Source: a plasmid
Reading direction: 5' to 3' (one strand)
Length of the DNA: 64,000 bases
Sequence record: NZ_CP033968.1
In this document: piece by piece, positions 5,360-40,479 of the stretch
Layout: each line of letters begins with the position of its first letter
Position numbering within the stretch: the stretch's first letter is position 1
Notes under the pieces: model-generated
What the model was told of the DNA's origin: nothing
What the model saw: only the letters and a program-made list of their open reading frames with translations
Databases searched by the model: none
Made by a program: the position numbers and the translations under genes

Positions 5360-5365
5360 AGTGGG

Positions 5366-6241
5366 TTAAAGAAAAATCTCGTCCTTGGGAGACTGCTGGG
5401 TGAGTTGAAGGCGCGGGTGGCTCAACAGAAGGGCGCTTTCGACTTTGGTGAGCCCTGCGTCCTGCTCAACCGTCTGTCGTGCGATCGCAACGTCGGCGAT
5501 CTTTTGGTTCTGGTCGTCAAGCCTGGTCTTGTACATGGTGTAGCGATCGGACTTGGCAGAATCAGCTTGCTGACTCTGCGCACCGGCACGCTGCCTTGGC
5601 GGTGCTGCATCGACGCCACTCGCTCCGGGAGGAGGGGTGTCGGTGAGCCCAGGCCCGCGATCCGGACTACCAAACTTGGCGTGCAGGCCTTCCAAGTACT
5701 TCACGTCACTGAAGAGGTTCATATGTACGTCAGCGCCGAATCCAAGCAACGACATACATTTGCTCATCCCATCCGTGAAGCTCTTCTTTGGCGCCTCTTC
5801 GTCAGTGAAGACGCCGTGGGTCGTACGCCCGACAAACGTCGTCTGGCCGAACTGTTCGATCTCACCGCGTCGAATCTCGCCTCTCCAATCCATCTCGTAC
5901 CAGAAGCGAACGCGCAATTTATGGATCAGCTCGCGCCCCCAAGAGTTGCCGTTCTCGTCCCAGCCCAACGGAGACCCCTCCAGAATCTCTTCCGAAACAA
6001 TGGTGCACCCCCAACCTAGTCCCATTGGACCGAACAGCTTGGTGGCTTTCTGGACGAGGTAGGTTGGAGTAACTGCTGTACCTGAGAACCCGCTATGAGT
6101 GCTGAACTCCTTCGTGAAGGTTGGATCAGTATGAAACACCTTGTCCCAGACATGAGCACAGCCTTCACCCAGTGGTCCTTGCATCCACCCCGGAACCGGT
6201 AAGTTGGTCCCCTTGCTGTTGTTGCTGCCGTTTTCACTCAT
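5366..6241 (-). CDS. putative Rad52/Sak-family single-strand annealing protein
   Basis: ATKLFGPMGLGWG and PKKSFTDGMSKCMSLLGFGADV match the FG-x-GW and KSAxTDAxKRxxxxFGxG signatures of Rad52-like SSAPs; S/Q-rich C-terminal tail; function by motif only. Confidence 0.4.
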   Translation of the reverse strand: MSENGSNNSKGTNLPVPGWMQGPLGEGCAHVWDKVFHTDPTFTKEFSTHSGFSGTAVTPTYLVQKATKLFGPMGLGWGCTIVSEEILEGSPLGWDENGNSWGRELIHKLRVRFWYEMDWRGEIRRGEIEQFGQTTFVGRTTHGVFTDEEAPKKSFTDGMSKCMSLLGFGADVHMNLFSDVKYLEGLHAKFGSPDRGPGLTDTPPPGASGVDAAPPRQRAGAQSQQADSAKSDRYTMYKTRLDDQNQKIADVAIARQTVEQDAGLTKVESALLLSHPRLQLTQQSPKDEIFL

Positions 6242-10268: not shown

Positions 10269-10943
10269 ATGAAATTTCGACTTCTTCTCGCGACGCTTCC
10301 ACTGCTCGCGACCGGCTGCTCATCGATCTTGAACACAGCGGACAACGATTCCTTCTCGTGCCCGGGTATGCCGCAGGGAATCATCTGCAAGACGCCGCTG
10401 GCCGTCTACAAATCGACGAACCAGATGCCGCAACCGACGGAGAGCGATCGCCCCTTTGGGTCTTCAGGAGCTCGTGGCGTTCAGGCGGGGGACGATCAGG
10501 GAAACGTTGCGCGCCCTGAGCTCACCAGCGGTGTTGCCGCAGGTGCGCCAGGGCTGATCCAAACGTCCGTCCCGGGTTCCGCCCAGGCCAACGGAACGGC
10601 ACGCCCGGTCCGCAAGCCGGCGCAAGTCATGCGCATCTGGATCGCTCCGTGGATCGATAGCAAAGACGATCTTCACTACCCGTCATATCTGTACACCGAG
10701 GTACAACCGCGCCGCTGGTCGTTCGGCAAGTCCGAGTTCGCCGGCAAGGGCATGGTTGTTCCTCATCGTGAGCTCGCAGCGGTCGCTCCGATTCCCCAGG
10801 AATCGGGCCGGCCGAACGGGAAACCTGCAGCGCAAAGAACTCCCGGGGGGGATGCGCCGCAGGCAGACGCCAACCAGCCATATCAGGGGACCGATGTGAC
10901 GAAGCTTGGCATGCCATCTCCCTCGGACATTAACCTCGAGTGA
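10269..10943 (+). CDS. traV: conjugal transfer lipoprotein TraV
   Basis: lipobox LLATGCSS; CPGMPQGIICKT di-Cys motif; VMRIWIAPWIDSKDDLHYPS matches F TraV LWIAPYIDNQDVYHQPS. Confidence 0.6.
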   Translation: MKFRLLLATLPLLATGCSSILNTADNDSFSCPGMPQGIICKTPLAVYKSTNQMPQPTESDRPFGSSGARGVQAGDDQGNVARPELTSGVAAGAPGLIQTSVPGSAQANGTARPVRKPAQVMRIWIAPWIDSKDDLHYPSYLYTEVQPRRWSFGKSEFAGKGMVVPHRELAAVAPIPQESGRPNGKPAAQRTPGGDAPQADANQPYQGTDVTKLGMPSPSDINLE

Positions 10944-17501: not shown

Positions 17502-20500
17502 ATGCTCGACTTCAATATTTACGTCGTCGGCGACCCGAGCTCGTTCTATGCCGCACTGAACGCGGTGGCCATGATCTTCAACCAGCAGGGCTTCCTGAAC
17601 AGCACGTTTCTGGTTGGCGGGCTTGTGGCACTGATCTCCGGCATCCTGTACATGATCGGCAAGCAGAGCGATGGGCCAGTCCCCGGCGCCATGGGGCCGG
17701 TCAGCGCGTTGTTTGGCTTCTTTGCCGTGGTCTGGACCACCACCATACCTACCTCCGTGCTGGTCAATGACATCTACACAGGAAACGTGGCGAGGGTCGA
17801 CAATGTGCCGATGATCCTCTCGCTGCCCGCAAGCGCCTTCACAACGGCAAGTCACAAGCTCTTCCAACTGTCCAATACCGCCTTTCAAAGCGTGAACGGT
17901 AGCTATATGGCGGTCACATCGGATGGATTTGTGACGCCGCTCAAGCTCCTGTACTCATTGCGCAGGGGCTTTGACAATGCTGACGTGTTCTTGTCTGCCA
18001 GCATTCGGACATTCATCCTGGACTGCACGCCGAACGCGACCTCGTTCTCAATGGACGCGATGAAATCAAGCGCCAACTCGCTGAACTACATCCTGACCCA
18101 TGCGCGCGACAACGGCATCACTACTTACTGGAACACTGCGAATCCGCAAGGCCAGTCCCTCTCCTGCAACGAGTCTGCAGCACTTATCTCGCAGGACGCC
18201 AACGTCCGGTTCCTCAATGGGACCAACCGCGGCCTCAAGGAGCTGATCAACAAGAACATGAAGGAGAAGAGCCCCACGGGCAACGCGTGGGGCCAAAGCG
18301 ATGTCGAGGACGTGTTGCAGAACGTGCTACCTGGCGGGTGGAAGACGGCAACGGACACACTAGGCATGGCCCAGAGTTCGCGCGACTTCATGATCAACGC
18401 TCTGACGTACAACACGATCGCGAACACTTTCAACTGCATGTCGAGCAACACTGATCAGGGAAGTTTCAATCAGTGCAATGTTCAGTTGACCCAGGCGTTC
18501 GAGCAGAGCCGAACTGACTCTGCAGCCGCCGGCTCGTTCTTCTCCAAGACCATGATGCCGGCGATGGTGTTCATGCAGCTGATGTTCTTCAGCTTCGCGC
18601 CATTGGTCATCATCTACGGCGTAATGAAGGGCGGCGGCGCACTTGGCATGTACATCAAGTACCTCCTGTTCGGAATCTGGACGTCGAGCTGGCTGCCGTT
18701 CTCGGCAGTGATCCAGATGTATATCCAGAACGACGTTGCCGAGAAGCTGTCCCAGATTGATTCCGGGATGCTGACTCTTTCAAACTTCCCGGCTATCTAC
18801 TACGACATCCTGGCCACTCGACTGTCGGTGGCGTCTGACATGCTTGCGGCGACGCCACTGGTTTCGCTCGCCATGCTGACGGGCACAGCTATGTCAATGG
18901 CTTCACTGGCTGGACGGTGGTCAGGTCGCGACCATGTTGACGAGAAGCAGACAAGTCCTGACATCGTGCGTAATGGGCCCATCACAGACGTCGGCGCAGC
19001 CACTCAATCTAGTGCAGCGATCACCGGGAATCCGCTGTCTGGAATGACACGCGCAGATGCTGCTCTTCGCGCTCACAGCGCAGGCCAGATGCTGGACAAC
19101 AACGTTTCCAGTGCTCGTGCGGACGTGCAATCGACTAAGGCCGAAGCGGCAGCATCGTTCGAGAAGATGATGAGCTATATGAAGGCTCATTCGAGCGGCT
19201 TTAAGTCCAGCGAATCCGATATCACAGCGATGAGTAAGGACTATGGAAGTCGTGCCTCCAAGGTGCAGGAGGCCGCCGAGAGCGCGATGGATTCGCATAA
19301 GTTCTCGGCAGAGGAGAAATCAGCATTCCAAGCTGCGATCACCGCAAGCGCCGGATTCAAGAGCCCATTTGGCGGCGTAGAGGCATCGGCACAAGCCGCA
19401 GCGACTGCCACGAAAGGTCGAGTCAGCGCCCAGGATTTCTCAAAGACGATGACGCAAAGGGTGAATACTGACCAGTCCTGGACCGACAGCATTACCAATC
19501 GTGCCCAGAATTCCATGGATCGGTACTCTGGCGAGGACACGAAGACCGCGCAGGGCCTCTCAGCGTCCCTTCGTCAGTCTACTGCTCGCGTCCAGTCCGC
19601 AGAGCAGCGCTACCAGGAAGCAGTAAGCATGAAGACATCGATGGATACGAGCTTCTCGGTCCGTGACCAGGAGCTTGGTCCGATGACTATGGCGAATCCC
19701 GCCGTCCAAAACGAGCTTCAAAAGATGAACGACAGCGCGATGCCGAACGTCCCCGGCTACCAGGCGAAGCTTGCCCAGCATCAGAATCGCGTCCAGAGGG
19801 CCGGCAACATCAGCGGAGCAGGATATGTCGCGATATTCAACGCTCTAGTGGACACGAATCAGTTCCAGGCGGCATCCAAGATCATGTCGATGCTTAGCGG
19901 TATAAACGGGCCAACCAATTTCTCCCCTAACGCCAACCAGGGAGTAGCCCCGGCTGCGGCGGCTGTTGCTTCCGATCCGGCTGCGGGTAACTTGTCACTC
20001 AAGGACCCTCATGTGCTGCAACAGGGCGGTGCCGGTGCAGGCCATGCCCCGGACGCGTCTGGCCGCGCCACCGCGGCATCCGGCCCGAGCACGACGGCCA
20101 TTCACGGTGGCACCCCTCCTCGGAACCCCGGCAATGGAGCCGCTGCCGGCAGCGGGCCAGCTGCACCTGCGTCAGGCCCGGGAGACCTCCAAGCGCGGTT
20201 GGATCGCCTCACGAACAACTCGCTCCCGAACTTTGAAGCGGACAAGCAGAAGATTGCAGACGGCACCGCCGGAGTCGGCCAAGGAATTGCCGACCAGAAG
20301 GAAGCAGTGCAATCGGCCTCGGCTGTGATCTCGCCCGAGCAGGTGCGAGACACGTTCCATCGTGAAGTGGGTACCGTGAAGAGCGGTTTCGCGGGAGCAG
20401 GTATGGCGTGGGGTGACTTTGAGAAGGCCCACCCCTATATGGCCGCCGGCATCGAAGCCGGTGTCACCATGCTACCCGTGATGCGCGCCGCCGGCGGACT

Positions 20501-21002
20501 CAAGAAGCTTTACGACGTCTCTGCAGCCGCAAAGAAGGGGTGGCAAGGCGTTCAAGCAGCGAAGGCCGGTGTCTCGACTGCCGCGAAGGAGATGGCAAGA
20601 TTGGAGAGCGCTTTCAAGTCTCCGAACGGCGCATTGCTCGGTGGCAAGAAGGCCCTTGATGCTCGACAAGTTGCGAACCTTGGCTTCAAGAGCACTGACG
20701 ACTTCCTGGAGGCCTATGGGAAGGCCGGCGCCAATGTCATCAAAGCTGAGAAGGATCTTCTGCGTTCGGCCGAGACATACTCCCAGAAGTTTGGCGCATC
20801 GGTTGGTAAGGATGGGCTTCCGGGCGACGCTACTTTCGGGTTCGTCGCGCAGAACGCTACACGGCAGGCCGTGGCCACCGGGAAAGCGGCAGGCGGTGCT
20901 GGTCTCCTCGAGCTCTCAAAGTACGAGGCGAACATCCACCGGCAAGAGGTCATGCATAACCAGGAGATGGAGGACCTGCGCCGAGGCGTGCGTGGTCGAT
21001 AG
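17502..21002 (+). CDS. traG: conjugal transfer protein TraG (F-type) with long low-complexity C-terminal extension
   Basis: N-terminal polytopic region with RVDNVP motif shared with F TraG; C-terminal ~450 aa rich in A/G/S/Q. Confidence 0.65.
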   Translation: MLDFNIYVVGDPSSFYAALNAVAMIFNQQGFLNSTFLVGGLVALISGILYMIGKQSDGPVPGAMGPVSALFGFFAVVWTTTIPTSVLVNDIYTGNVARVDNVPMILSLPASAFTTASHKLFQLSNTAFQSVNGSYMAVTSDGFVTPLKLLYSLRRGFDNADVFLSASIRTFILDCTPNATSFSMDAMKSSANSLNYILTHARDNGITTYWNTANPQGQSLSCNESAALISQDANVRFLNGTNRGLKELINKNMKEKSPTGNAWGQSDVEDVLQNVLPGGWKTATDTLGMAQSSRDFMINALTYNTIANTFNCMSSNTDQGSFNQCNVQLTQAFEQSRTDSAAAGSFFSKTMMPAMVFMQLMFFSFAPLVIIYGVMKGGGALGMYIKYLLFGIWTSSWLPFSAVIQMYIQNDVAEKLSQIDSGMLTLSNFPAIYYDILATRLSVASDMLAATPLVSLAMLTGTAMSMASLAGRWSGRDHVDEKQTSPDIVRNGPITDVGAATQSSAAITGNPLSGMTRADAALRAHSAGQMLDNNVSSARADVQSTKAEAAASFEKMMSYMKAHSSGFKSSESDITAMSKDYGSRASKVQEAAESAMDSHKFSAEEKSAFQAAITASAGFKSPFGGVEASAQAAATATKGRVSAQDFSKTMTQRVNTDQSWTDSITNRAQNSMDRYSGEDTKTAQGLSASLRQSTARVQSAEQRYQEAVSMKTSMDTSFSVRDQELGPMTMANPAVQNELQKMNDSAMPNVPGYQAKLAQHQNRVQRAGNISGAGYVAIFNALVDTNQFQAASKIMSMLSGINGPTNFSPNANQGVAPAAAAVASDPAAGNLSLKDPHVLQQGGAGAGHAPDASGRATAASGPSTTAIHGGTPPRNPGNGAAAGSGPAAPASGPGDLQARLDRLTNNSLPNFEADKQKIADGTAGVGQGIADQKEAVQSASAVISPEQVRDTFHREVGTVKSGFAGAGMAWGDFEKAHPYMAAGIEAGVTMLPVMRAAGGLKKLYDVSAAAKKGWQGVQAAKAGVSTAAKEMARLESAFKSPNGALLGGKKALDARQVANLGFKSTDDFLEAYGKAGANVIKAEKDLLRSAETYSQKFGASVGKDGLPGDATFGFVAQNATRQAVATGKAAGGAGLLELSKYEANIHRQEVMHNQEMEDLRRGVRGR

Positions 21003-21445: not shown

Positions 21446-22078
21446 TCAGCCGGTCATGGCCTTCGAGACCATGCCATTTGCAAGCTTGAAGAAGAGCTCC
21501 TGGTCGCCGTTCGTGCTGTCGGGCGTGATGACATAGCGACCACCGATCGCAATAGACGGCGTCGCATCGATCCGGTACCGGATGAGCTTGTTGAATGCGG
21601 CCTGGACTGTAGCGGGGTTCACGTTCTTCCATGCAGCATCAAACCCCTGCAAATGGGAGGACGAGGCAATGAAGCTCCAAGTCTTGCCGTCACTCACCGG
21701 CATACCGCGGTCCTGAATAGCGGAGTAGGCGTAGCTCAAGAACGCAGGAAGGTACGTGGCATTCAAAGCCTTGGCCGCATAGAAGGCCCTCGCAGCGATG
21801 ACGGTGTCACGATGTGCCTCGACAACCGGCACAAACTCCGCACTCCAGCCCTTAGGTAGCGACAGTGCCCACTTCGCAATCTGCTCGTGGTACGCGGCGC
21901 AAACAGGGCAAGTCAGAGAGATGAAGATCAGGACCTTCTTACTGTCCTCCGCTTCCCGCGGGACTTCCCTATAGGGCAGCTGCGGTGCCGACGTCCCCTG
22001 TGACGACTCCTGTGCCAGCGTCGTCAGCGGCAGGCCGAACAACGCGACGGCCATTGAAGAAAAGGAGCGACGGTTCAT
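21446..22078 (-). CDS. thiol:disulfide interchange protein, DsbA/TrbB-like
   Basis: signal peptide MNRRSFSSMAVALFGLPLTTLA; CPVC active site; start at M57 of track ORF. Confidence 0.6.
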   Translation of the reverse strand: MNRRSFSSMAVALFGLPLTTLAQESSQGTSAPQLPYREVPREAEDSKKVLIFISLTCPVCAAYHEQIAKWALSLPKGWSAEFVPVVEAHRDTVIAARAFYAAKALNATYLPAFLSYAYSAIQDRGMPVSDGKTWSFIASSSHLQGFDAAWKNVNPATVQAAFNKLIRYRIDATPSIAIGGRYVITPDSTNGDQELFFKLANGMVSKAMTG

Positions 22079-23615
22079 TGAAATCTTCCTCTGTAAGGTG
22101 CTTGTGTTCAATATATAGGTCAAAGAGTGAGCAACTGGTCCGCTCTTGGCGCCATCGCGTCTCCATCTCTTTCGCCAGATCTGCCGACACCTTGCCGGTG
22201 GTGATGAAGTACCGGACCAATTCCGGAGCGCCCTGGGTGTAACCAACTGCCCGGATCACCTCCCGTGCGGTACAGATCCCTTCTTCGACGAGGATCTGTC
22301 CGAGCCGCCGAACCTTGCCACCCTTACGGAGCTCGATCTGCCGTACGGCCGCTGCATACGCCTCCTCAGGCGTGATATATCCGAGCTCCACGAGAACTTG
22401 ACCGACGCGCTTCGTCTCAGGCGCCAACGCTTCGGCCCGATCAAGCTGCATGGCCTTCTCGATGGAGGTCAAACCGGCTGCGGCCATGCGCGTCACGGCT
22501 TGCGCCATGGTTTCGAACTGCGATTGGCGCATGGCTGCATTGAAAACCGCCATCTCCCCGCTCATCGCGAGCATTGCCGCTCGCACCGCAGCATCGGCCC
22601 GAATCAACTCCATAACCGGCATCCGGCCCTCATAGTCGGTCTCCTGTACGCCTGCGGGGAATTTGAGACCGGCGTGATGGATACCGGCAACCTCCATCCA
22701 GTCCACTTCGGCTTCGGTCGGAGCTCGGGTCCCTCTCTCCGGATCTGGCAGCAGAATTTCCACGAGCCGTTGGGAGAGGACACCGCGGAGAGCATCGGCC
22801 AGCGTCTGAACGTCCACACCCATATCGAGTAGACGTGTGATCGCCATCGCCGAGTTATTCGCGTGAACGGTAGCAACCACCAGGTGCCCGGTGTTTGCTG
22901 CCTGGATGGCAATCATCGCGGTCTCGACGTCGCGAATCTCACCAACCAGAATGACGTGCGGGGCTTGGCGGAGTGCTGCACGCAACCCCTCGGCAAACGA
23001 GATGTGCTGATTGATGTTGACCTGTGTGAGCCCAGGGAGGACCTTCTCGACGGGCTGCTCGAGCGTCAGGATGTTCCGCTTCCCATTGTTGAGATGCTGA
23101 AGTCCGGCATACAGAGTTGTGCTCTTCCCCGACCCCGTGGGGCCACAGACGAGAAAAAGCCCATTCGGCTCTTGCAGGATGTCCTGTAAGCAAGACCGTG
23201 CCATCGGCGTCATCTCAATCTCGTCGAGACTCGCAACGGAGGCAGTATTGTCCATCAGGCGACAAACGATCTTTTGTCCGGTCAGTGTCGGCAGGATCGA
23301 CACCCGAACATCAACCGCCCGGTCAGGAAACTTGAGTCTTAGACGCCCATCCAGTGGCTTATGACGATCCGAGGCGGCAATGTTGGCACGCGCCCGGAGC
23401 TTCTCGTCGAGTTGCTTAGCGAGGTTGTGATCAATGTGGTCGACCCAGTGCAGCGAACCAGAGATGCCATACTGAATTGTGGTGCCCTCTGCTTCGTACA
23501 ACATGTGAACGTCGGCAGCACGTCTTACTGCGGCCCTGGAGAACATGTCGTTCAGGTATTCCGCCGCCGCACGATCATGCGTCCCGGTATTGAAGAATAG
23601 GTCTGGTTCTCTCAT
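21969..23615 (-). CDS. GspE/PilB-family secretion ATPase with C-terminal MshEN-like repeat extension
   Basis: Walker A CGPTGSGKST, Asp box, Walker B ILVGEIRD, His box TVHAN; C-terminal ~130 aa contains LGQVLVELGYITPEE / LGQILVEEGICTAREV repeats. Confidence 0.75.
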   Translation of the reverse strand: MREPDLFFNTGTHDRAAAEYLNDMFSRAAVRRAADVHMLYEAEGTTIQYGISGSLHWVDHIDHNLAKQLDEKLRARANIAASDRHKPLDGRLRLKFPDRAVDVRVSILPTLTGQKIVCRLMDNTASVASLDEIEMTPMARSCLQDILQEPNGLFLVCGPTGSGKSTTLYAGLQHLNNGKRNILTLEQPVEKVLPGLTQVNINQHISFAEGLRAALRQAPHVILVGEIRDVETAMIAIQAANTGHLVVATVHANNSAMAITRLLDMGVDVQTLADALRGVLSQRLVEILLPDPERGTRAPTEAEVDWMEVAGIHHAGLKFPAGVQETDYEGRMPVMELIRADAAVRAAMLAMSGEMAVFNAAMRQSQFETMAQAVTRMAAAGLTSIEKAMQLDRAEALAPETKRVGQVLVELGYITPEEAYAAAVRQIELRKGGKVRRLGQILVEEGICTAREVIRAVGYTQGAPELVRYFITTGKVSADLAKEMETRWRQERTSCSLFDLYIEHKHLTEEDFNEPSLLFFNGRRVVRPAADDAGTGVVTGDVGTAAAL

Positions 23616-23620
23616 TGTGA

Positions 23621-23887
23621 TTACTTCCCGCAGTCGAGTGTCGGGCCGTAGAACAGCCGGCCAAGGAATCTCTGGGTTGTGTTGTCCGCCGTGATACTCC
23701 AACTGATCAAACGCAGCCGGCTATCCTGGCTCAGAAAGTTCTGCCCGCCCCAGCGCACCGCATCGAATGCGATCCGCACCGGCCCGGCCGAGCGGTAGAC
23801 GCGCTCGCACGGTTCCGGCGCGATCGCTGAGTACACCACCCAGCCCACGACCATCGCAGCAAAGGCGCCGCCAAACATCTGCTTCAT
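23621..23887 (-). CDS. small membrane protein
   Basis: hydrophobic helix FGGAFAAMVVGWVVYSAIA; between SLT and ATPase genes. Confidence 0.3.
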   Translation of the reverse strand: MKQMFGGAFAAMVVGWVVYSAIAPEPCERVYRSAGPVRIAFDAVRWGGQNFLSQDSRLRLISWSITADNTTQRFLGRLFYGPTLDCGK

Positions 23888-24318
23888 CGATTTACTCCGT
23901 GCAAGTTCTTCCACACCTTATTGATGTAGCGTATCTGGGCATCGTCGTCCTTGGAGTACTTGCCCGTGTTGTACGCGCCAACTGCCTTCCAGGTCCTGCC
24001 GTACTTGTACATCCCGTCAGCGAGCACCCAGGCGCCTACGTTCACGTTCACGCATGGCTCAAGCAGCCTTTCCCGATCGATCCCGAACTTCTTCAGTTCT
24101 GGCAGCCAGATCGAGCTGACCATCATGAGGCCCATGAACTCCCAACCCTCCTTGCTTGTTCGAACCAGATTGGGGTCGAACGAGGCGTTCTCCGTCTTTG
24201 CAATAGCGCGCAGCAATGACTCATCGACGGAGTACCGCTTAGCCGCCTCCTTGAAGCAATACCCCCAGCTTTGCAGGCTCACGGAGGCCAGGATGGCGAA
24301 GGCCAGTAGCTTTTTCAT
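23884..24318 (-). CDS. lytic transglycosylase (SLT domain; conjugation-associated, P19/orf169-like)
   Basis: signal peptide MKKLLAFAILASVSLQSWG; SLT-like motifs ES..NP and AYNTG. Confidence 0.65.
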   Translation of the reverse strand: MKKLLAFAILASVSLQSWGYCFKEAAKRYSVDESLLRAIAKTENASFDPNLVRTSKEGWEFMGLMMVSSIWLPELKKFGIDRERLLEPCVNVNVGAWVLADGMYKYGRTWKAVGAYNTGKYSKDDDAQIRYINKVWKNLHGVNR

Positions 24319-24364: not shown

Positions 24365-25336
24365 ATGCGAAATCTCGTGCTTTGCGCGCTAACTGCCGCT
24401 ATGTGGGGCGCATTCGCCACCGCGGCACATGCTTCGGACATTCCCACCGGTAAGCCGGGGCAGGAGGAAGCCACTCCGCGCGTGGCAGGGGGCGCCAAGC
24501 CGTCATCCCTTCCGAGTGACACTGCCTCCATTGACATCACCGCGAAGCTCGACGATCTCCTCGCTACGGCGAAAGAGACGAGTGAAGTGATGCGTCTCTA
24601 TGCCAGCTGGCAAGCTGGTAATCGCGAGGCGGTGCCTGAGATATTTGCATTAGCCAAAAATGGCAACGCCCGCGCACAGAACCTCGCGGGGTTCATGCTC
24701 GACAATGGGCAGGGTGTGAAGCAGGATTCCAAGGCCGCAGCAGCATACTTCCAACGGTCCGCGGAGAGCGTTCCGCTGGCCAAGTACAACCTCGGGGTGC
24801 TGACGTACTACGGAAGGGGTGTAAGAAAAGACGAGGCAAGGGCAATGGAGCTCTTCAAGGGCTCCGCAATTAAGGCCGGCGTCGAACAGGCGAGTGTTCA
24901 GCTCGCCATCTACTACCTGAAGAACAAGAACGAGGACGAAGCGTATAAGTGGGCGAATGAAGGGGCGAACCGCGGCAACGTCAAGGCCTTCTACCTGCTC
25001 GGTAGGATTCTGTACCAGCGGGGCCAGTACCAGTCCGCCGCCTCGTGGATACAGAAGGCCGCTAATGCATCCGAACCGAATGCGCCAGCAATCCTGTCGC
25101 TCATGTACCGCGACGGGAAGGGAGTAGGGCAGAGCAAGATGATGTCCGCGGCCTGGTGGATGATCTATGGCGCCCTGAATCGGCGCCAGACTGGAGGCAG
25201 CCTTGTTTCCTCCTCCTCATTCGACCTGGATGAAACGGAACAACGGCAGGCGCTAGGCTTTGCAAACAACTGGTTGGCTACGCATGGCGCAGACAAGCGT
25301 ATCAGCTATCAAAAGACACTTTTGCAGACAAACTAG
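24365..25336 (+). CDS. Sel1-repeat (TPR-like) exported protein
   Basis: signal peptide; at least five Sel1-like repeats (A.NLG.MY..G.GV..D...A..W..KAA). Confidence 0.65.
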   Translation: MRNLVLCALTAAMWGAFATAAHASDIPTGKPGQEEATPRVAGGAKPSSLPSDTASIDITAKLDDLLATAKETSEVMRLYASWQAGNREAVPEIFALAKNGNARAQNLAGFMLDNGQGVKQDSKAAAAYFQRSAESVPLAKYNLGVLTYYGRGVRKDEARAMELFKGSAIKAGVEQASVQLAIYYLKNKNEDEAYKWANEGANRGNVKAFYLLGRILYQRGQYQSAASWIQKAANASEPNAPAILSLMYRDGKGVGQSKMMSAAWWMIYGALNRRQTGGSLVSSSSFDLDETEQRQALGFANNWLATHGADKRISYQKTLLQTN

Positions 25337-25421: not shown

Positions 25422-27914
25422 TCAGCCACAACTACCGATGTGACCACACGCTTGGCATTTGCTGCACCCATCGACGCGATGGAGTTCGTGAGCGCCACAT
25501 TCCGGGCACTTCTTTCCGAGTCCTGCCCCGATCGATTGACCCAGGCTCACCACGGTCCCGCTGTCAGAAGTGACTTCGTCGAAAGCAAGCGCTGCGTCGG
25601 TTTTCGACAGGCGTCTGGCGAGTTCCGCTGCCGGTACCTGACTACCGTCCTCGGCAAGGAAGCCGCGTTTTTTCAGAATGGACTGCAGGGCGTATCCGAT
25701 CGCTGCGACCTCCGAATCGTGGTGCAGCGGCACCTTCGATCCATCAGCCCGCGTCAAATGCCCATAGCGCACCGCACCCTTGTCCCAGATGACTTCCCGG
25801 AGGTTTGCGACTGCCTTCGCTACCGAACCACCGGATCGTGCCACCATCGAGAGCATCCGCATGTTGGCAGAGATCCATTGTTGGCCGTCATTCCGCTGGC
25901 CCGCCGGCATGAAGAATTCCACCGGTCGTTCGATCTCCGCCTCCTCACCATCAACGATGCCTTTGACGCGCATGAAGTTCACCGTGAGATATACGGTGTT
26001 CGCCCCCTCATAGGTAAAATACTCAACCTTTGAAGTGACACCCTCCAGTTCGCCGGTAGGCCGGCTGTCGAAGGGCATGCGCAACGGATCGTCCGCGATG
26101 GGCGTGGGCGTCGGGCTTGGACTCGGCGATGCAGGAGCCTCCACCGACAGCACGGCACCGAGCACGGAGTTAGGCCGATAGGTCGCCAGTCCTTTCAAAC
26201 CCGCCTTCCACGCATCCAGGTACAGATTCTGGAAATCCGCGTAAGGGTAGTCTTCAGGTACGTTGACCGTCTTGCTGATGCTGGTGTCGATGTACGGCTG
26301 AACCGCTTCCAGCATTCGCATATGGTCGATCGCAGGCATTTCCAGCGCCGTCACGAAGCATTCTGGCAGGTTCACAACATCCCCACCAAGATGCCGATAG
26401 AGGCGGTACGCATGATCAGCTACTTCAAACGTCTGATAGCTGTTGTCCGGCATACGCTTCTTGCGGTTGTACGTCCAGGAGAATGCAGGTTCGATGCCAT
26501 TCGAGGCGTTATCAGCAAACGCGAGGGTGATAGTCCCCGTGGGTGCAATCGACAGCAAGTGCGAGTTGCGAATGCCGTGCTCCTGGATCAGATCTCGAAC
26601 ATCCTGGGGCAGGCGCTTTGCGAAGCCGCTCTCGAGGTACTTCTCTTTGTCGAGGAGCGGGAACGAACCCTTTTCGACAGCGAGCGCTACCGAAGCTGCG
26701 TAAGCGGCGTCGCGCATCGACTCCGAGATTGACGCAGCCAGCTCGCGTCCCGCATCGGAATCGTATCGAACTCCCAGCATCACGAGTGCACTTCCCAGGC
26801 CCAAGAACCCAAGGCCGATGCGTCGCTTCGACATGGCTTCGTCCCGCTGTTTCGGAAGCGGCCAGAACGTGGCGTCAAGTACGAGATCCAGCATTCGGAT
26901 TCCCGTGGCCACGAGAGCCCTGAAGCCTTCGAAGTCGAAGTGTGCTTCGGGCCCGAAGGCGTTCCGCACGAACTTCGTAAGGTTGACCGAGCCCAGGCAG
27001 CAGCAACCGTAAGACGGCAAGGGCTGCTCCGCGCAAGGATTCGTTGCCTCAATCTGCTCGCAGTAGTAGAGGTTGTTGTCAGAGTTCATCCGGTCAAGGA
27101 AGAGAACCCCAGGCTCGGCGTGGTCATAGGTCGACTTCATGACCTGGTCCCACAGCTCCCGCGCGCTCACTTTTCGATACACCCACGTCCCGTCATCCCG
27201 ACGGTACGATTCCGCCGTCAGCACTTCCGGATGGGGCTCTGCATTGTGCCAAAGTTCGATTTCCTCGCCGACTTCGACGGCACGCATAAATGCGTCAGTG
27301 ACCCCGATCGAAATGTTGAAGTTGGTCAGTTCGCCCTTGTCCTTCGCGTGGATGAATTGCTCGATATCTGGGTGGTCGCAACGCAGCACACCCATCTGAG
27401 CTCCGCGGCGAGCACCGGCAGACTCGACCGTCGCACACGACGAATCGAAGACCTTCATAAAGGAGACCGGGCCGGAAGCTCGGGAGAACGTGCCTCGCAC
27501 CAACGCACCGTTCGGACGGATGTCGCCAAATGCATAGCCGACACCGCCACCGCGCCGCATGGTTTCAGCGGCCTCGGCCACCGCGGTGTAAATCCCGGGC
27601 TTACCATCTTTGGCCTCGGATACCGAGTCGCCAACCGGTTGCACAAAGCAGTTGATTAGTGTCGCCTGGATATCGGTGCCGGCTGCAGAGTTGATGCGAC
27701 CCGCCGGAACGAAACCCGATTCAAGCGCGTCGAGGAACTGGACTTCGAACTCGGCTCGGTTCTCTGGTCGCTCCATACTGGCTAGCGCCTTTGCGACACG
27801 GCGCCGGACATCCGCGACAGTCTTCTCGCCACCCTTGGCGTACTTTTCCAAGAGGATCTCACCCGAAATTTCCTGGGCCGGCAGGATGCCGAACATCTTT
27901 TCATTTGCGTTCAT
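25422..27914 (-). CDS. nrdJ: adenosylcobalamin-dependent (class II) ribonucleoside-diphosphate reductase
   Basis: 830 aa; characteristic class II RNR blocks ([29 protein letters not shown]); C-terminal CxxC...CxxC zinc ribbon. Confidence 0.85.
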
Positions 27915-34694: not shown

Positions 34695-36485
34695 ATGGAT
34701 CAAACTCAGCCGCGCGTATCTATGCGCCATCTGCATTTGTACGCGCATTTGCTGCTGGCAGAGGCCAAGCAAAACGGAAAATCGGTCCGACTCGAGTGGG
34801 CGAACATCCCCACCGCGTCGATTGGCCCTGATCCGGCAAATCCGGGAGGTCTGGTACTGCGGCTGTCGCAAATGGCAGCGGTCGGTACCGAAGAGGATGC
34901 GACCCTACTGCGGGCACTGATCTCTCATGAGATCGTCTGCCACGGCCACCACACGGACTTCACCGTAGTTCCGCCCAGCAATCTCGCGGGTCAACTGGCC
35001 AACATCCTTGAAGACCCCCGCGGCGAGCTACTTGGCGCCAAGAAGTTTCCCGGGTCAAAGAAGGTGATACGCGAGGGGATTGAGATTCTGGTCGATCGCA
35101 AGGTCTTCCAGGGGCCTCAAGACAGTAGCGATACACCCGCCGCGGTCCTGGCCGGTTGGCTCGTAACTGAATTGCGCTCGGAGCTCCTAGACCAGGACTG
35201 CCTTCGTCAATTCGCCACCGACTTCCGGGCCCGTGCCATCAAGCATTTCGGCACGAAGCTGACCGGCCAGGTCAAAGCCGTTGCGTTGCAAGGCGCGACA
35301 GCACGCGATACTCAAGGTGCGATTCAAGCTAGCATCCGCATCCTCGAGCTGCTGAAGCTTGCAGCGGATAACAAGCCTGACTCTCAAGGTGGGGAACAAC
35401 AATCCGGCTCGCCGCAAGACAACCAAGATGCCGGCGATCCCTCCGGGCAGACATCTGGCCAACAAGACTCAGAGGACGGTTCCGAGCCGGGAGGCTATGA
35501 ACCTTCTCACAATGAGCTGGCCGAGGCCGTCAATGCCGTTCTGACAGCAAGCCCCGGTGACCTGGGCAGCTATGGCAAGGGGCTCGAAGAAGTACTCAGC
35601 GAGGCCAACGAAGCGATCCAGGAAGCCCAAAGCGCCGGAGGTAGCAGTCATACGTCAGAGTTGAACGAGCACAGCGCCCCTGCCAATGGTGGCTCATTGG
35701 AGAACCGCTCGCGTTTACGTTCTGCTGCGAGGACTACAGCTTCGGCATTGTCCCTGCGGTTGCAGGACCTTCTTGAGGCCTTCGCCGCCGCCACGCGTCG
35801 GAGTTGCTCGAGCGGTAAGCTTCGTTCAAATCGGGTGTGGCGAGTGCCGCTGGGTGATACCCAAGTGTTCCGTCACAAGACCCGACACGACGAGCTGGAC
35901 ACTTGTGTCTATCTTCTCGGCGATGAATCCGGCTCAATGGATGAACCCTTTGACTCGGAGCGAGCTCCGCATCTCCACGCTGCGGCGCACAAGCCATCGG
36001 CTCAAGATCAGATCCAGGCCCACAAGGTCGATCGCAAGGACGCTGCTGGCCGGGTCATTGTTGCAGCAGGGGAGGTGCTTGACGGCGCTGACATTCCCTT
36101 CGGCTTGGCGACCTATAGCGAATCGGTTCGCGAGTGGAAAGGCTTCGAGGGTGACTGGTCGTCTACGCTTCAGCGGTTCCGCCCTGAAGCCACCGGTAGC
36201 ACCAACACGCATCTCGCAGTCGTATGGGCGCTCAGGAAGTTCATTGGGCGTAGCGAAGCGCGAAAGGTGCTGACCGTGGTCACCGATGGTGATCCAGGCG
36301 ATCGAGACATCCTTGAGGCCGCGCTTCGCGAAGCTGCGCAGTTCGGTGTTGAGGTGCGATTCGTCCTGATCGGCGCGGAGCACGTGGCTAAATTCCACGG
36401 TCTCTCCGCTACCTACGGTGTGGCGAACAACGTCCGTGAGCTTGCAACTGCTGTCTTCAGTTCTCTCGAAGCTGCAATTTGCTAA
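34695..36485 (+). CDS. VWA-domain protein (CobT-like) with acidic low-complexity linker
   Basis: MIDAS-like CVYLLGDESGSMD, later T-x-x-D; central Q/S/D/G-rich linker; pairs with downstream AAA ATPase. Confidence 0.65.
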   Translation: MDQTQPRVSMRHLHLYAHLLLAEAKQNGKSVRLEWANIPTASIGPDPANPGGLVLRLSQMAAVGTEEDATLLRALISHEIVCHGHHTDFTVVPPSNLAGQLANILEDPRGELLGAKKFPGSKKVIREGIEILVDRKVFQGPQDSSDTPAAVLAGWLVTELRSELLDQDCLRQFATDFRARAIKHFGTKLTGQVKAVALQGATARDTQGAIQASIRILELLKLAADNKPDSQGGEQQSGSPQDNQDAGDPSGQTSGQQDSEDGSEPGGYEPSHNELAEAVNAVLTASPGDLGSYGKGLEEVLSEANEAIQEAQSAGGSSHTSELNEHSAPANGGSLENRSRLRSAARTTASALSLRLQDLLEAFAAATRRSCSSGKLRSNRVWRVPLGDTQVFRHKTRHDELDTCVYLLGDESGSMDEPFDSERAPHLHAAAHKPSAQDQIQAHKVDRKDAAGRVIVAAGEVLDGADIPFGLATYSESVREWKGFEGDWSSTLQRFRPEATGSTNTHLAVVWALRKFIGRSEARKVLTVVTDGDPGDRDILEAALREAAQFGVEVRFVLIGAEHVAKFHGLSATYGVANNVRELATAVFSSLEAAIC

Positions 36486-36490
36486 TCCCA

Positions 36491-36526
36491 CAGCCCCAGT
36501 GACTTCTGTCCTGGGGCTTTTTCTTT
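36491..36526 (+). terminator. rho-independent terminator after VWA gene
   Basis: gccccagtgacttctgtcctggggc + tttttctttg. Confidence 0.6.
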
Positions 36527-36607
36527 GGCCGACGGCTGCCGACACAGTAAGGCGCGATCGACGCGAGCGTTTGTCTGACTTCCAGTCCTCTGTGACTCAT
36601 ATCTGAG

Positions 36608-36657
36608 CGCCAGGCCTTTGCAAGAGGCCGTCAAACCCACCTCTCAGGAGAAACATG
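36608..36657 (+). promoter_or_regulatory. conserved hairpin-containing 5' leader (copy 1)
   Basis: gccaggcctttgcaagaggcc...tcaggagaaacATG; nearly identical to 39364-39414. Confidence 0.4.
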
Positions 36658-37770
36658 ATGGAAGCAGCAGCAATTGAAAGAAAGTCGATCGACGCAGTCT
36701 TCGGTGTTGATGGCGGCGCTTTCCGCGCTCACGGCTCGCAATCGACGACCACCATCCGTGTCTTCGCAGCCAACGACGACACACCAGACGTCATTGAAGG
36801 TTTTGCATTCCAGCCCGATACCCTCCGCCGAATCCTCGTCTGGATGGCGTCGGGAGCCCTGCCGAACAACTTCACCAAGGCGACGATGAAGCGCAACCTG
36901 TTGATCTACGGACCGACAGGATGTGGCAAAACGGCACTGATCTCGCAGGTTTGTGCTCGGACGGGACGATCCATGTTCCGCTACCAGTGCAGTGAAGACT
37001 CCGAGGCAACCCAGCTCTTCGGCACGTACAAGCTCTGCAAAGTGCCGCAGAATGCGGAACGGCAGGAAGTGGAAGCCGAAGCGTCTGCAGCACCTCAACA
37101 GGCGTCGGCTCTCTCGGCGACCCCTGAAATGGTGTTCGTGGATGGTCCGGTTCTCCGCTGGGCGCGCACGCCGAACTCGATTCTTCTGCTTGACGAGTTC
37201 GACCAGCTTCCGCCATCGGTTGCAATGAGCATGAACGGAGTCCTGGACGGTGACGACATTCTTGTTCCGGAGACGGGGGAGCGAGTCAAGATCGCAGCCG
37301 GTTGTCTGATTGTGGCCACTGGCAACACCAACGGACGAGGTTCGGCTGGCGGCAACGGCGGCTCCGCGTCACTCTACAAAGGTGTGAAGCGACAGAACAT
37401 CGCCAGCCTTGACCGATTCTTCGTTGTCAATGCCACGTACCTGTCCGTCGAGGAAGAGATTGCACTTCTTCAGGACCAGGTCGGCATGCCGGAGACGGCG
37501 GCAACGGCAATGGCGAAGTTGGCCAGCAGCTTGCGTAGCCGGTTTGTTGGGCTCAATGAGGATGCTGGTGCCAATGGGGAACCGCTCGAGTTCACCATCA
37601 CCACTCGCAACCTCTTGAACTGGGGTCTGACGCACCGCCTGCTTATGGCAACGGGCCTGGACAGCACCAACGCATTCAAGGAAGGGCTTAGCATGACGCT
37701 GCTCGACTTCGGTACGGGCGCAGAACGCAAAGCAGTCCTCGACGCATGGGAGAACATCATCGGCGAGTAG
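36655..37770 (+). CDS. AAA+ ATPase, CobS/MoxR-like
   Basis: Walker A LIYGPTGCGKTALI, Walker B LLLDEFDQ; sensor region; pairs with VWA protein. Confidence 0.75.
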   Translation: MMEAAAIERKSIDAVFGVDGGAFRAHGSQSTTTIRVFAANDDTPDVIEGFAFQPDTLRRILVWMASGALPNNFTKATMKRNLLIYGPTGCGKTALISQVCARTGRSMFRYQCSEDSEATQLFGTYKLCKVPQNAERQEVEAEASAAPQQASALSATPEMVFVDGPVLRWARTPNSILLLDEFDQLPPSVAMSMNGVLDGDDILVPETGERVKIAAGCLIVATGNTNGRGSAGGNGGSASLYKGVKRQNIASLDRFFVVNATYLSVEEEIALLQDQVGMPETAATAMAKLASSLRSRFVGLNEDAGANGEPLEFTITTRNLLNWGLTHRLLMATGLDSTNAFKEGLSMTLLDFGTGAERKAVLDAWENIIGE

Positions 37771-38302: not shown

Positions 38303-38574
38303 GATGGAGCCTTCCTTGTTGATACAAATGTCTTCCCGCGAGACGGTTACGCATAAACACCTAGCGACGGGTTGTGTAGCTTTCGGCCGCACACACCTAG
38401 GTTTCTCTTTGCGGGTGAGAGATGGTGAACAGCCGTCGATAATCTTTCGGTAGCCAGTACGCAAGCTGCAGCGCAGCCGCGCCGGCGCCGCCGCGGTATT
38501 CCGACGCAGGATCGGAGCGGCAAAAGAACAGCCCCTCGCTGGCGAACCAGGAGGGGCTTGAGGGGGATGTTTGA

Positions 38575-39183
38575 TCAGGCGTACTTCGCAGCTTTGGCAG
38601 CAAACGCAGCTCGCCCCGTTTCGGAGTGCCAAGTACCGCGTTCGAGGAGTTCCGCGGCTCCAGCTGCAGTGCTGCTCTGAAGCCACCCGCAATGCTTGCA
38701 AGCGAAGTCGGGCTTGCCCGGTTCAGAAACGGCGACCTGGGTGAACTCGCGCTCCGCGAAGTCTTCGTCCGCGCACGCCATCGTTATGGTGGCCCCGCGC
38801 GTGTCGACTCGCGTTGTTTCGGCCGCCAGTTGATGGACCAGAGATCGAACAAGTTCCGCTTCGCTGGCCATACTGATCCCCGCAATGCCCAAGCGCTGCT
38901 CGTCAGCACTCGTTGTACTGAACATGTACCGGATCTCGCTCCCGTGCTTGAAGCAGGACACGAAGAACTGCCCTTGCCTTTCATCCGTTACAACAAACGC
39001 GAACGGCTGGCGATCAATGCCTAACAACAGGATGCCGTTCGGCCTCCGCTGATAGAAACCAGCCTGGCCCCCGACGGGCTCGGCCTGCAACGCACCGTAT
39101 TGGCGTCCATTCAAGTCAAGGGCAGGGGAGGGGCCACCAATGCCGGCCTTCTGCTGCGTAGCTGTGCGAGCGCATTCGTCCAT
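38575..39183 (-). CDS. hypothetical protein
   Basis: AAGGAG SD before ATG; terminator hairpin downstream (38533-38561). Confidence 0.45.
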   Translation of the reverse strand: MDECARTATQQKAGIGGPSPALDLNGRQYGALQAEPVGGQAGFYQRRPNGILLLGIDRQPFAFVVTDERQGQFFVSCFKHGSEIRYMFSTTSADEQRLGIAGISMASEAELVRSLVHQLAAETTRVDTRGATITMACADEDFAEREFTQVAVSEPGKPDFACKHCGWLQSSTAAGAAELLERGTWHSETGRAAFAAKAAKYA

Positions 39184-39363
39184 GGTTTCTCCTTTGAAAT
39201 GTGAAGAGTTACTGATGTCCGGGAATGCGTAACACGGCTCTAGAACGCGATTCGTCTGGCCAGAAACGTCCTCCTACCCCCCCACCACCTGCAACGACCA
39301 TCGACAACAAACCCTCGCTAGTTGCGACCGTCAGTTACTTCCCCCTGTCCGGCATATCGAAGA

Positions 39364-39414
39364 GCCAGGCCTGTGCAAGGGGCCTGTTTCGTCTAACTTC
39401 AGGAGATACACATG
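39364..39414 (+). promoter_or_regulatory. conserved hairpin-containing 5' leader (copy 2)
   Basis: gccaggcctgtgcaaggggcctg...tcaggagatacacATG. Confidence 0.4.
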
Positions 39415-40479
39415 AACCAAGCAACGACGGTGGCTAGCAGCCAGATGGCGATTCTGAAAGATGTCGTCCTGTTTGACTTCATCATCGGAGGCAGCACCGG
39501 AGAGAAAACGGTCGAGGCGGATGATTTCATCCGTGAGGTCGGCAAGATGCTCCCGCGAGGTTCTTTTTCGTGGGTTTCGAAATACCGTTCGGAAGCGAAG
39601 CGAGAGATCCTGAAAGTTGGCGTCGCTCGCCGCATTCACAACCGTGTGCGTGGCTACTTCGTACCGCTGAGCGAAGCCGCCGGGCTCTCCAGCAAGATGA
39701 CGGACATCAAGGCGCGATTCATGAAGGAGAAGGCCGAGTTCCTGGCCAACCTCCCAAGGATCGTTGATGAGTGGGCGAATGCCCCGGTCAATGCCAGTTC
39801 GACCAACAATGGCAAGTCGCGAGCGGATCTCATTCGCCTGCACGCGCCAAAGACGGACGACATGGACCGCATGCTCTCCTTTGACATTTCCGCCACAGGC
39901 ATCCAGTCCACCAGCTTCTTTGGCGAGGACGACGCGCTCCACGCAGAAGTCAAAGGCTTAGTTGGCCAGGCGGCGCTCGAGATTGCGGAAGACGTGCGAA
40001 AGTCCTGGAAAGGGCCGGCCGCGGGGCGCACGAGCAGCCGCGTCCTGGGATTGATTCGCCGTGTTCGCAACAAGGCGGAAGCGATGGGCGTCCTGTCGAT
40101 GAAGTTCAGTCGACTGGCCGAAGTATGCGACAAGGTCCTGGGCGCAGTTCCGGAGGGGCAGAACATTGAAGGCGTTCAGTTCCTGATGGTGTCATCGCTG
40201 CTGTCCCGGTGCATGAAGGCGGAAAACATTCTCTCCGAAGACTCGGTAAGGTTTGATCCGCTCGATGTGGAATCAGCGGCGCCGGCGGTCACGCCTGGTG
40301 TCCAGCCTCCGGTCGCCAACGTGCCAATGCAGTCTCAATCCGACCTCGCCATCGGCGACACGGCCCCAGCCTTCGACGAATCGCCTAAACCTTCGAGCCC
40401 ACTCCCTACTGCAATCCTGCCGAGCGCCGCTGAACCCGTGGCCTCGACCCAGGATGACACGCTGGAATTGGTCCTGTAA
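39412..40479 (+). CDS. hypothetical protein (possibly DUF3150-like, associated with AAA/VWA module)
   Basis: ORF with SD; family assignment from memory only; Pro-rich C-terminus. Confidence 0.4.
   Translation: MNQATTVASSQMAILKDVVLFDFIIGGSTGEKTVEADDFIREVGKMLPRGSFSWVSKYRSEAKREILKVGVARRIHNRVRGYFVPLSEAAGLSSKMTDIKARFMKEKAEFLANLPRIVDEWANAPVNASSTNNGKSRADLIRLHAPKTDDMDRMLSFDISATGIQSTSFFGEDDALHAEVKGLVGQAALEIAEDVRKSWKGPAAGRTSSRVLGLIRRVRNKAEAMGVLSMKFSRLAEVCDKVLGAVPEGQNIEGVQFLMVSSLLSRCMKAENILSEDSVRFDPLDVESAAPAVTPGVQPPVANVPMQSQSDLAIGDTAPAFDESPKPSSPLPTAILPSAAEPVASTQDDTLELVL

Follow-up and report, generated by a model that had tools for sequence, protein, structure and literature searches.

A GspE/PilB-clade ATPase with a C-terminal MshEN-like domain as a candidate third motor of F-type conjugation systems

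F-type conjugation machines are textbook type IV secretion systems (T4SS) that make do with two ATPases, and it is still a question what powers their pili and how these are withdrawn. Peptidoglycan opening by lytic transglycosylases of the SLT family (Orf169 of F, P19 of R1) and disulfide chemistry by TrbB/DsbC-type thioredoxins are common in systems of this mating-pair-formation class (MPF_F). VirB1/P19-type transglycosylases open the peptidoglycan for T4SS, and Dsb proteins serve the cysteine-rich periplasmic subunits of the F type. The T4SS of the F plasmid works without VirB11, an ATPase which, like DotB, docks under VirB4 (reviewed in PMC12857230). A table on ICEAfe1, an integrative and conjugative element (ICE) of Acidithiobacillus ferrooxidans, lists AFE1087 'pilB', a protein of 396 aa and COG2804, as VirB11 equivalent near traA/traC, with dsbA/dsbG as accessories (PMC6370655). 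Here we describe a stretch of 64,000 nucleotides (the window) from the plasmid record NZ_CP033968.1, a large conjugative plasmid of the Cupriavidus type. Four tightly packed genes among its F-type DNA-transfer genes, running on the minus strand from 24318 to 21446, encode in this order a lytic transglycosylase (SLT), a small protein, a GspE/PilB-clade ATPase and a DsbA homologue. By a balance slightly better than even, we favor the view that the ATPase is a lineage-specific third T4SS ATPase in an accessory module of F-type systems, which would take the role of VirB11 or DotB and carries a putative input for cyclic di-GMP (c-di-GMP).

The ATPase and its place among the transfer genes

An earlier note on this DNA, made from the sequence and its open reading frames (ORFs), had read the operon as SLT, small transmembrane protein, GspE/PilB-type ATPase and DsbA. 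Gene content and coordinates held up in ORF models and Pfam and NCBIfam searches. All four gene models agree with the RefSeq annotation of Cupriavidus plasmids that are 98% identical over the operon stretch, i.e. C. campinensis MJ1 unnamed2 and Cupriavidus sp. EM10 p352-2 (NZ_CP076062.1), both of which are typed as conjugative and MPF_F by PLSDB.

The ATPase (548 aa; 21969..23615, minus strand; ATG start with MREPDLF) belongs to the secretion-ATPase superfamily with a score of 304.4 bits for Pfam PF00437 T2SSE (cut-off 24.9, E 1.1e-90). Walker A, GPTGSGKS, comprises residues 158-165 (23121..23144, minus strand), the equivalent of the Asp box is E186-x-P188-V-E190, Walker B is VILVGEIRD at 221-229 and the His box is TGH244...H251. 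In an alignment of 68 sequences with 38-73% identity G158, P159, T160, G161, G163 and K164 of Walker A, E186, P188 and E190, E226-I-R-D of Walker B and H244 and H251 were invariant. Thus the claim of a complete GspE/PilB-class ATPase in an MPF_F locus was confirmed. The more specific models placed it outside each described family. The score for GspE (TIGR02533) was 327.7 bits with an equivalog cut-off of 630.25 and covered profile positions 111-484 only; that for PilB (TIGR02538) was 287.4 bits with an equivalog cut-off of 675.65 and covered positions 176-559 only. PilT/PilU (TIGR01420) scored 156.4 bits (cut-off 319.1), TraJ 98 (368.3), DotB 76.4 (463.3), VirB11 50 (249.95) and TrbB 49.6 bits (304.55).

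An AlphaFold2 model of the full-length ATPase, built on the alignment of 68 sequences, had a mean predicted local distance difference test score (pLDDT) of 87.7. Foldseek against the PDB returned PilF, EpsE and PilB first with E about 1e-37 and a target TM-score of up to 0.91; BfpD, PilT and DotB followed, the latter two with E about 1e-21. The enzyme starts directly with an N2 domain, which is followed by a RecA-like C-terminal domain (CTD) and then by a C-terminal extension that resembles (MshEN_N)2. Domain analysis and the model revealed neither N1E nor an N-terminal MshEN domain. Residues 285-330, where GspE and PilB carry a tetracysteine Zn site, contain no cysteine; the closest shorter relatives of the ATPase still possess the site. 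By analogy the enzyme would form a hexamer.

On sequence and predicted fold the ATPase groups with extension/assembly motors rather than with PilT. This bears on the idea that it is a PilT-like retraction motor, or a bifunctional motor for extension and retraction, of the F-type conjugative pilus. F-type pili do retract, a dedicated retraction ATPase is not known for them, and the minimal architecture of N2 and CTD without N1 is PilT-like; moreover, a passage of PMC6920026 has single bifunctional motors in Tad pili. However, the profiles of GspE and PilB outscored that of PilT (327/287 versus 156 bits), and the Foldseek E-values differed in the same direction. To our knowledge, classical F and R27/SXT-type systems retract their pili without any such ATPase, which excludes a general retraction motor. 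We consider a retraction or bifunctional motor quite improbable.

The large ORFs of the window encode an F-type T4SS with OmpA, TraE, TraK, TraB, TraV, TraC, an S26 peptidase, TraF, TraH, TraG, TraN and a coupling protein; TraG (17502-21002) is convergent with the operon. TraW, TraU and TrbC were not detected in the window by tblastn, and the module had been suggested to compensate for them. From position 244,406 of the MJ1 plasmid onwards, that plasmid and the window are collinear with 97% identity; the MJ1 plasmid encodes DsbC-TraW-TraU-TrbC at 236,937-240,104, i.e. about 4 kb past the window edge. The apparent absence of the three proteins is thus an edge effect, and the proposal of a compensatory function lost its ground. 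TraL and TraA are also annotated in the collinear plasmid. Taken together, the tra genes of the window and of the collinear plasmid, the type IV coupling protein and the PLSDB typing of the relative identify the system as MPF_F.

Alternatively, the four genes might form an independent apparatus similar to a thin pilus or a type II secretion system (T2SS), as the earlier note had considered, or a decaying remnant among tra genes. The nearest characterised relatives of the ATPase are indeed motors of T2SS and type IV pili (T4P), and the ATPase is annotated as two coding sequences (CDS) in plasmid EM10. Yet neither the large ORFs of the window nor, in precomputed Pfam matches, the ±10 kb around six related loci revealed a pilin, a PilC/GspF platform, a secretin or a prepilin peptidase. 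This and the adjacent tra genes spoke against a separate apparatus. The synteny with tra genes is strict across proteobacterial classes, and the catalytic motifs are invariant. In EM10 p352-2 (L001) not only is the ATPase split (3968-5544), but the region collinear with TraG is annotated as three CDS (1-3003), which suggests indel errors over decay; the split genes are probably assembly indels and not real pseudogenes. An independent or decaying apparatus thus appears very improbable.

Related loci were searched with the alignment of the C-terminal domain (C-domain) and the conserved stretch RQPQFETLAQAG as a query, the C-domain alignment itself being devoid of a conserved 7-10-mer. The order SLT, small protein, ATPase and DsbA, with tra genes adjacent, was preserved in 20/20 loci with enough flanking sequence. 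These loci span Beta- and Gammaproteobacteria (Cupriavidus, Rubrivivax, Piscinibacter, Herbaspirillum, Noviherbaspirillum, Pseudomonas, Acinetobacter, Sideroxydans, Thiobacillus-like metagenome-assembled genomes (MAGs) and Rhodoferax). In one arrangement the module is convergent on traC-S26-traF-traH-traG with traN nearby; in the other it is located directly upstream of ompA-traL-E-K-B-V-C in the same direction (Sideroxydans, Acinetobacter, Chromobacterium and Paraburkholderia fungorum). About 66 full-length homologues of the ATPase with 38-74% identity exist at the level of 90% clusters. The form with the C-domain was present in 24 PLSDB plasmids of 200-600 kb, 19 of them typed as conjugative, from Pseudomonas (14, including pSTY), Burkholderia, Caballeronia, Methylibium PM1, Aromatoleum EbN1 and Acinetobacter, and in 18 loci among one-per-species genomes. 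Short forms of 418-426 aa that retain the zinc site and are devoid of the C-domain occupy the same position in a chromosomal element of Chromobacterium and a plasmid of Paraburkholderia fungorum. Therefore, the association of the ATPase with the T4SS is wider than the C-domain form. We conclude that the operon is very probably a conserved T4SS accessory module. That its ATPase acts as a third T4SS motor is, by analogy, reasonably likely.

The C-terminal domain and its possible ligand

Residues 402-461 of the ATPase (22233..22412, minus strand) represent a MshEN_N-type module and residues 462-519 (22059..22232, minus strand) a degenerate MshEN_N-like second half. The top PDB matches of a profile built from 26 family members (residues 385-520) were exclusively MshEN/GSPII domains. 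PilF from T. thermophilus (6f8l) was matched in three stretches with E 5e-18, PilB N-termini from Geobacter with E 9e-10 (5zfr) and 2e-8, MshEN from V. cholerae crystallised with c-di-GMP (5htl) with E 3e-9 and the c-di-GMP domain GSPII-B of PilF with E 7e-5. The homology to solved MshEN/GSPII domains, with E-values from 5e-18 to 3e-9, bears out the earlier claim that this ATPase carries MshEN-type repeats at the C-terminus instead of the N-terminus. Of the two Pfam families that the earlier note had suggested for a check, T2SSE was recovered in the core; T2SSE_N did not match any of the 26 C-domains. Standard annotation misses the homology because T2SSE_N is silent and the 53-residue NCBIfam model NF053729 'c-di-GMP motif' reaches 32.5 bits, which is below its cut-off of 38 bits; it was the family profile against the PDB that revealed it.

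The second half was identified as a duplicate of the first by hhalign with a probability of 93% and E 3.6e-7. It is helical with a pLDDT of about 85-95. W488 and SLFDL are conserved in this half, and the ligand residues of R-h-G and the Gln are missing. In NfrB-type glycosyltransferases and other non-ATPase fusions MshEN_N occurs outside the N-terminus and in tandem as (MshEN_N)2 (Wang et al., PMC5013675), an arrangement which the two halves match. The ATPase also weakly matched PRK15489, a model for the NfrB family with 703 positions, of which 482-574 were covered. In 39 long members the mean pairwise identity was 0.45 for the MshEN_N-like module, 0.54 for the core and 0.14 for the tail behind it. 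A search with the C-domain among 1.84 billion representatives at 50% identity returned 199 proteins at E <=1e-3, just a handful of which are proteins of 474-555 aa with the domain at the C-terminus. A sequencing frameshift or a mis-called C-terminus as the origin of this region was ruled out, since the domain is located upstream of the overlap with dsbA and has been retained by over 60 homologues with identities as low as about 39%.

The module consists of two tandem 24-residue motifs, R403-Q426 (motif I) and R437-T460 (motif II), which are separated by a 10-residue spacer. They were compared with the strict MshEN motif RLGxx(L/V/I)(L/V/I)xxG(L/V/I)(L/V/I)xxxxLxxxLxxQ (Wang et al. 2016, PMC5013675) and with a relaxed version, [RKPN]hGxxhhxx[GAS]hhxxxxhxxxhxx[QNKRYWST]. 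Motif I satisfied the relaxed version, motif II did so only if Cys448 was counted as hydrophobic, and in many Pseudomonas members both copies conformed to it. Conservation within the C-domain is highest at Gln426, at the two turn Gly residues and at the R-h-G Arg and Gly of either motif. From its sequence the C-domain may bind c-di-GMP, a possibility to which we assign somewhat less than an even chance.

Several points speak against a third motor with a c-di-GMP input. Motors of the GspE/PilB type normally need a GspF/PilC platform and a GspL/PilM partner. Both are absent here, and the ATPase lacks the N1 domain by which partners of this kind are bound. Besides the sub-threshold score with NF053729, neither motif satisfied the strict consensus and, as counted from the sequence, about 7 of 11 key positions per motif (about 64%) are kept. 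Motif I has A419 and A423 where the consensus has Leu, motif II has C448, and T460 in place of the terminal Gln, and the spacer of 10 residues compares with 5 in MshE (5-7 usual). The isolated C-domain was modelled by AlphaFold2 as eight helices with a pLDDT of 88.6, and 12/12 best Foldseek matches were MshEN/GSPII or PilB N-terminal domains, those at ranks 1-7 and 9 being bound to c-di-GMP. Although the latter superimposed with a root-mean-square deviation of 1.0-2.4 Å over 57-58 columns and a probability of 0.94-1.0 (1.0-2.0 Å over 57 columns with a probability of 0.95-1.0 for the best fold matches 8pfa, 8pdk and 5htl), their E-values of 0.5-1.5 (0.5-1 for these three) are not significant because just 57 residues align. 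A scan of the window for the motif GG[DE]EF did not detect an ORF encoding GGDEF. Finally, GSPII-A of PilF, in which one motif is good and the other degenerate, is no binder of c-di-GMP (PMC11731258). On the other hand, GSPII-B of PilF binds c-di-GMP at 6 nM despite the absence of both Arg (PMC11731258). Therefore, the motif sequence alone is not decisive for c-di-GMP binding.

The departures from the binding consensus and the precedent of GSPII-A also fit a different reading, in which the enzyme is again a third T4SS ATPase, while the MshEN_N-like module replaces N1 as a protein-docking domain for a T4SS subunit or an adaptor and is not a nucleotide receptor. In XpsE and further MshEN homologues the ability to bind c-di-GMP has been lost (PMC5013675), and Foldseek also returned the N-domain of Xanthomonas PilB in complex with PilZ (7lkn/7lkm), which is a protein-binding use of the fold. 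Furthermore, the second half is degenerate yet conserved as befits a structural or interaction role. However, the most ligand-diagnostic residues are the best-conserved columns of the domain, and the fit of both copies to the relaxed motif in many Pseudomonas members speaks against a docking domain as well. We rate a docking domain as unlikely, if worth keeping in mind.

Binding of c-di-GMP to MshE promotes MSHA pilus production. In its most specific form the favored third motor with c-di-GMP input would be gated by the nucleotide, docked beneath TraC/VirB4, and would switch on or reverse F-type pilus dynamics in a surface-attached donor with high c-di-GMP. Judged by sequence and analogy this is a speculative and rather improbable scenario. 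If true, it would represent the first case of a second-messenger receptor as an integral part of a conjugative T4SS and a natural case of an F-type machine recruiting a T2SS/T4P-clade motor in place of VirB11.

The dsbA overlap, the other module members and neighbouring genes

The ATPase and dsbA genes overlap by exactly 110 nt in two reading frames (21969..22078, minus strand), with the ATG of DsbA at 22078 upstream of the ATPase stop codon at 21969-21971. The earlier note had left open whether this is a genuine overlap, a frameshift or a mispredicted start. The same overlap of 110 nt is annotated in a 98% identical plasmid, and overlaps also occur in distant relatives. The start of the DsbA signal peptide was inside the 3' end of the ATPase gene in 17/19 loci with overlaps of 11-137 nt: 110 in Rubrivivax and Piscinibacter, 104 in Herbaspirillum, 128-137 in Noviherbaspirillum, 95 in Pseudomonas, 32 in Thiobacillus-like MAGs, 23 in Fluviicoccus, 17 in Sideroxydans and Acinetobacter and 11 in Chromobacterium. 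For loci L010 and L029 (overlaps of 17 and 11 nt) the ATPase ends were taken from the annotation. A mispredicted DsbA start was ruled out, because the overlapping start alone supplies a signal peptide, which a start past the ATPase stop would remove. The tail of the ATPase, residues 523-548, is predicted to be disordered (pLDDT below 50), and shorter members terminate where the last helix ends. With starts inside the ATPase gene in most loci and an unconserved tail, the option of a genuine overlap prevailed, and by these comparisons the overlap is real and old. Because the overlapped ATPase tail is disordered, unconserved and absent from shorter members, selection in the overlap acts on the DsbA frame with the ATPase tail as a read-through by-product.

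Two side observations concern this region. A Shine-Dalgarno sequence of the GAGGA type for dsbA (22079-22093, minus strand) is embedded in the ATPase codons for T-E-E-D-F, a conserved 'xEE(D/E)(L/F)' domain end. It was seen in the window and in Sideroxydans, in a weaker form (AGGA) in Pseudomonas, and had no equivalent in Rubrivivax. This suggests translational coupling of the ATPase and dsbA. In Noviherbaspirillum (L014, L017, L018) the ATPase tails in the overlap (~10480-10618) are cysteine-rich, e.g. CAGRCTTCDAGRC, and may be an alternative-frame by-product or a small metal site.

The DsbA homologue (210 aa; 21446..22078, minus strand; ATG start with MNRRSF) matched Pfam Thioredoxin_4 with 30.5 bits (cut-off 23.2) and, in a phmmer search of the PDB, DsbA 3hd5 with E 1.1e-9 over residues 39-204. 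Its active site is C57-P-V-C60 (DNA 21899-21910). Together with the signal peptide, MNRRSFSSMAVALFGLPLTTLA, which is twin-arginine-like, these features assign it to the DsbA family. The mature N-terminus 'LPYREV' is common to the window and the Pseudomonas loci; in Rubrivivax it reads 'LPFREV'. The twin-arginine pattern in residues 1-22 (22013-22078, minus strand), MNRRSF, recurs in relatives as MNRRSFLAQAG, MQRRAFLLG and MKRRAFLL; the loci concerned besides the window are L005, L012-L014, L017-L019, L021, L023 and L026. It suggests export of the DsbA homologue by the twin-arginine translocation (Tat) rather than the Sec pathway. In Pseudomonas members the signal is Sec-like instead (MKKFIARM).

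The lytic transglycosylase (144 aa; 23884..24318, minus strand) is IagB/VirB1/P19-like, carries a signal peptide and matched Pfam SLT with E 6.8e-18. Among the NCBIfam models that of the type III secretion enzyme IagB fitted best, with 113.7 bits where the equivalog cut-off is 208. In all loci the module begins with the transglycosylase gene. The adjacent protein of 88 aa (23621..23887, minus strand) had no match in Pfam or NCBIfam. Its N-terminal hydrophobic segment is followed by a domain of ~60 aa, PxxCERVxRGAxPVR...FYG....C, with two conserved cysteines, and it was retained between the SLT and ATPase genes in all 13 loci read. Most simply, it would be a periplasmic, disulfide-bonded component. 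A function as a membrane anchor of the ATPase is unlikely, since the bulk of the protein with the two conserved cysteines is predicted to be periplasmic. Divergent from the operon, a Sel1/TPR-repeat protein is encoded at 24404..25336 on the plus strand with the signal peptide MRNLVLCALTAAMWGAFATAAHA and matches to Pfam Sel1 (E 4e-11) and TPR families; in RefSeq of a relative the gene starts ~110 nt earlier than 24404. A homologue is present in the same divergent position in 17/20 informative loci.

The module is adjoined by a gene for a ribonucleotide reductase large subunit (25422-27914, minus strand; Pfam Ribonuc_red_lgC/lgN), which is annotated as adenosylcobalamin-dependent in a 98% identical plasmid and has an adjacent homologue in the Rubrivivax, Piscinibacter and Rhodoferax loci. 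A conserved ribonucleotide reductase is unusual cargo for a transfer region. Downstream of traN and a DEAD-box helicase gene, 34695-37770 (plus strand) encodes a CobT/VWA-domain protein paired with a MoxR-type AAA+ ATPase, annotated as VWA protein and MoxR ATPase in the relative plasmid. Collinearity with the MJ1 stretch compared ends at ~38.1 kb with the exception of 38304-39773 (1.5 kb, 93% identity), which is displaced by ~5 kb in MJ1. The region 38115-64000 contains DUF3150, a topoisomerase, a weak candidate for a Cas3-HD-like helicase, an M30 peptidase, an OprB porin and, in a stretch of 64-66% GC, an ORF of 1237 aa without a Pfam match.

Proposed role and comparison with known systems

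According to the reading we favor, the operon would be an accessory module of a distinct MPF_F lineage on plasmids of 140-600 kb and ICEs of environmental Beta- and Gammaproteobacteria. The lytic transglycosylase would open the peptidoglycan for the conjugation machine, and the DsbA homologue would form disulfides in cysteine-rich periplasmic Tra proteins; the 88-aa protein may be a periplasmic component and possibly a DsbA substrate. The hexameric ATPase would serve as third cytoplasmic motor as VirB11 or DotB do elsewhere, most likely placed at the base of TraC (VirB4), where it would support the assembly or the dynamics of the pilus, a role we prefer because it groups with extension motors. 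In the sub-lineage of the window the ATPase would have lost its N-terminal partner domain and the Zn site and gained the C-terminal (MshEN_N)2 module. By binding c-di-GMP, or else a protein adaptor, the module would couple motor activity to the surface or biofilm state. The docking site, direction of action and ligand binding of the ATPase are what we infer in this scheme.

The data hint that some F-type conjugation machines possess a third, signal-regulated motor. A GspE/PilB-clade ATPase is always present in this broad and environmentally widespread F-type branch. Among its members are catabolic plasmids, for example pSTY, and plasmids of 200-400 kb that Pseudomonas isolates from clinical sources and sewage carry. 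Such systems make it tractable to ask what an F-type machine gains from a third motor and whether conjugation can be linked directly with biofilm signalling. If essential, the ATPase would be a lineage-specific target for blocking plasmid spread. What is new is a conserved and unstudied candidate third motor in an F-type branch; its parts are of known kinds. Searches of open-access papers and preprints turned up no account of this ATPase family, with the table entry for ICEAfe1 (PMC6370655) as the lone partial precedent, nor of a T2SSE ATPase with a C-terminal MshEN module, nor of a c-di-GMP receptor within a conjugative T4SS. The 'PilT analogue' of ICEclc was dismissed as a precedent, because a signal peptide and a match to TIGR03755 show that it is not a secretion ATPase.

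The ATPase has the fold of N2 and CTD and the four catalytic boxes (Walker A, Asp, Walker B, His) in common with GspE/EpsE and PilB/PilF (1P9R, 5TSH, 5OIU). About 385 residues align with ~31-36% identity, and the highest profile scores are those with TIGR02533 and TIGR02538. Unlike these motors it scores at about half the equivalog cut-offs, has its putative regulatory domain at the C-terminus and is devoid of N1E, an N-terminal MshEN domain and the Zn site; its gene belongs to an F-type T4SS locus without GspF/PilC, GspL/PilM, pseudopilins and secretin. The C-terminal module resembles MshEN/GSPII domains (MshE 5HTL, PilF GSPII-B 8PDK) in its tandem 24-residue R-h-G...G...Q helical-hairpin motifs and, by its model, possibly in a four-helix bundle. 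It differs in that it is placed behind the ATPase and comprises the MshEN_N part alone, the degenerate copy taking the place of the alpha/beta MshEN_C subdomain. Moreover, its spacer has 10 residues, and several hydrophobic positions for ligand contacts are weakened. In the NfrB-type fusions the catalytic partner domain is unrelated to the ATPase. VirB11, TrbB, DotB and TraJ belong to the same secretion-ATPase superfamily, and like these the ATPase is proposed to be a soluble hexamer alongside VirB4 and VirD4; yet it is of a different clade with remote similarity, a different N-domain and an extra C-terminal domain. PilB of ICEAfe1 is, as far as the table entry alone goes, likewise a COG2804 PilB-type ATPase among Tra-type (F-like) genes, but it is short and presumably lacks the C-terminal MshEN-like module. 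In comparison with F Orf169, R1 P19 and TrbB/DsbC, transglycosylase and oxidoreductase are here constant partners of an ATPase and a novel two-cysteine protein within a single operon. Furthermore, the oxidoreductase is DsbA-like with its CPVC motif, in contrast to the F-like TrbB/DsbC proteins, and the relative plasmid has a DsbC in addition, which is encoded ahead of traW.

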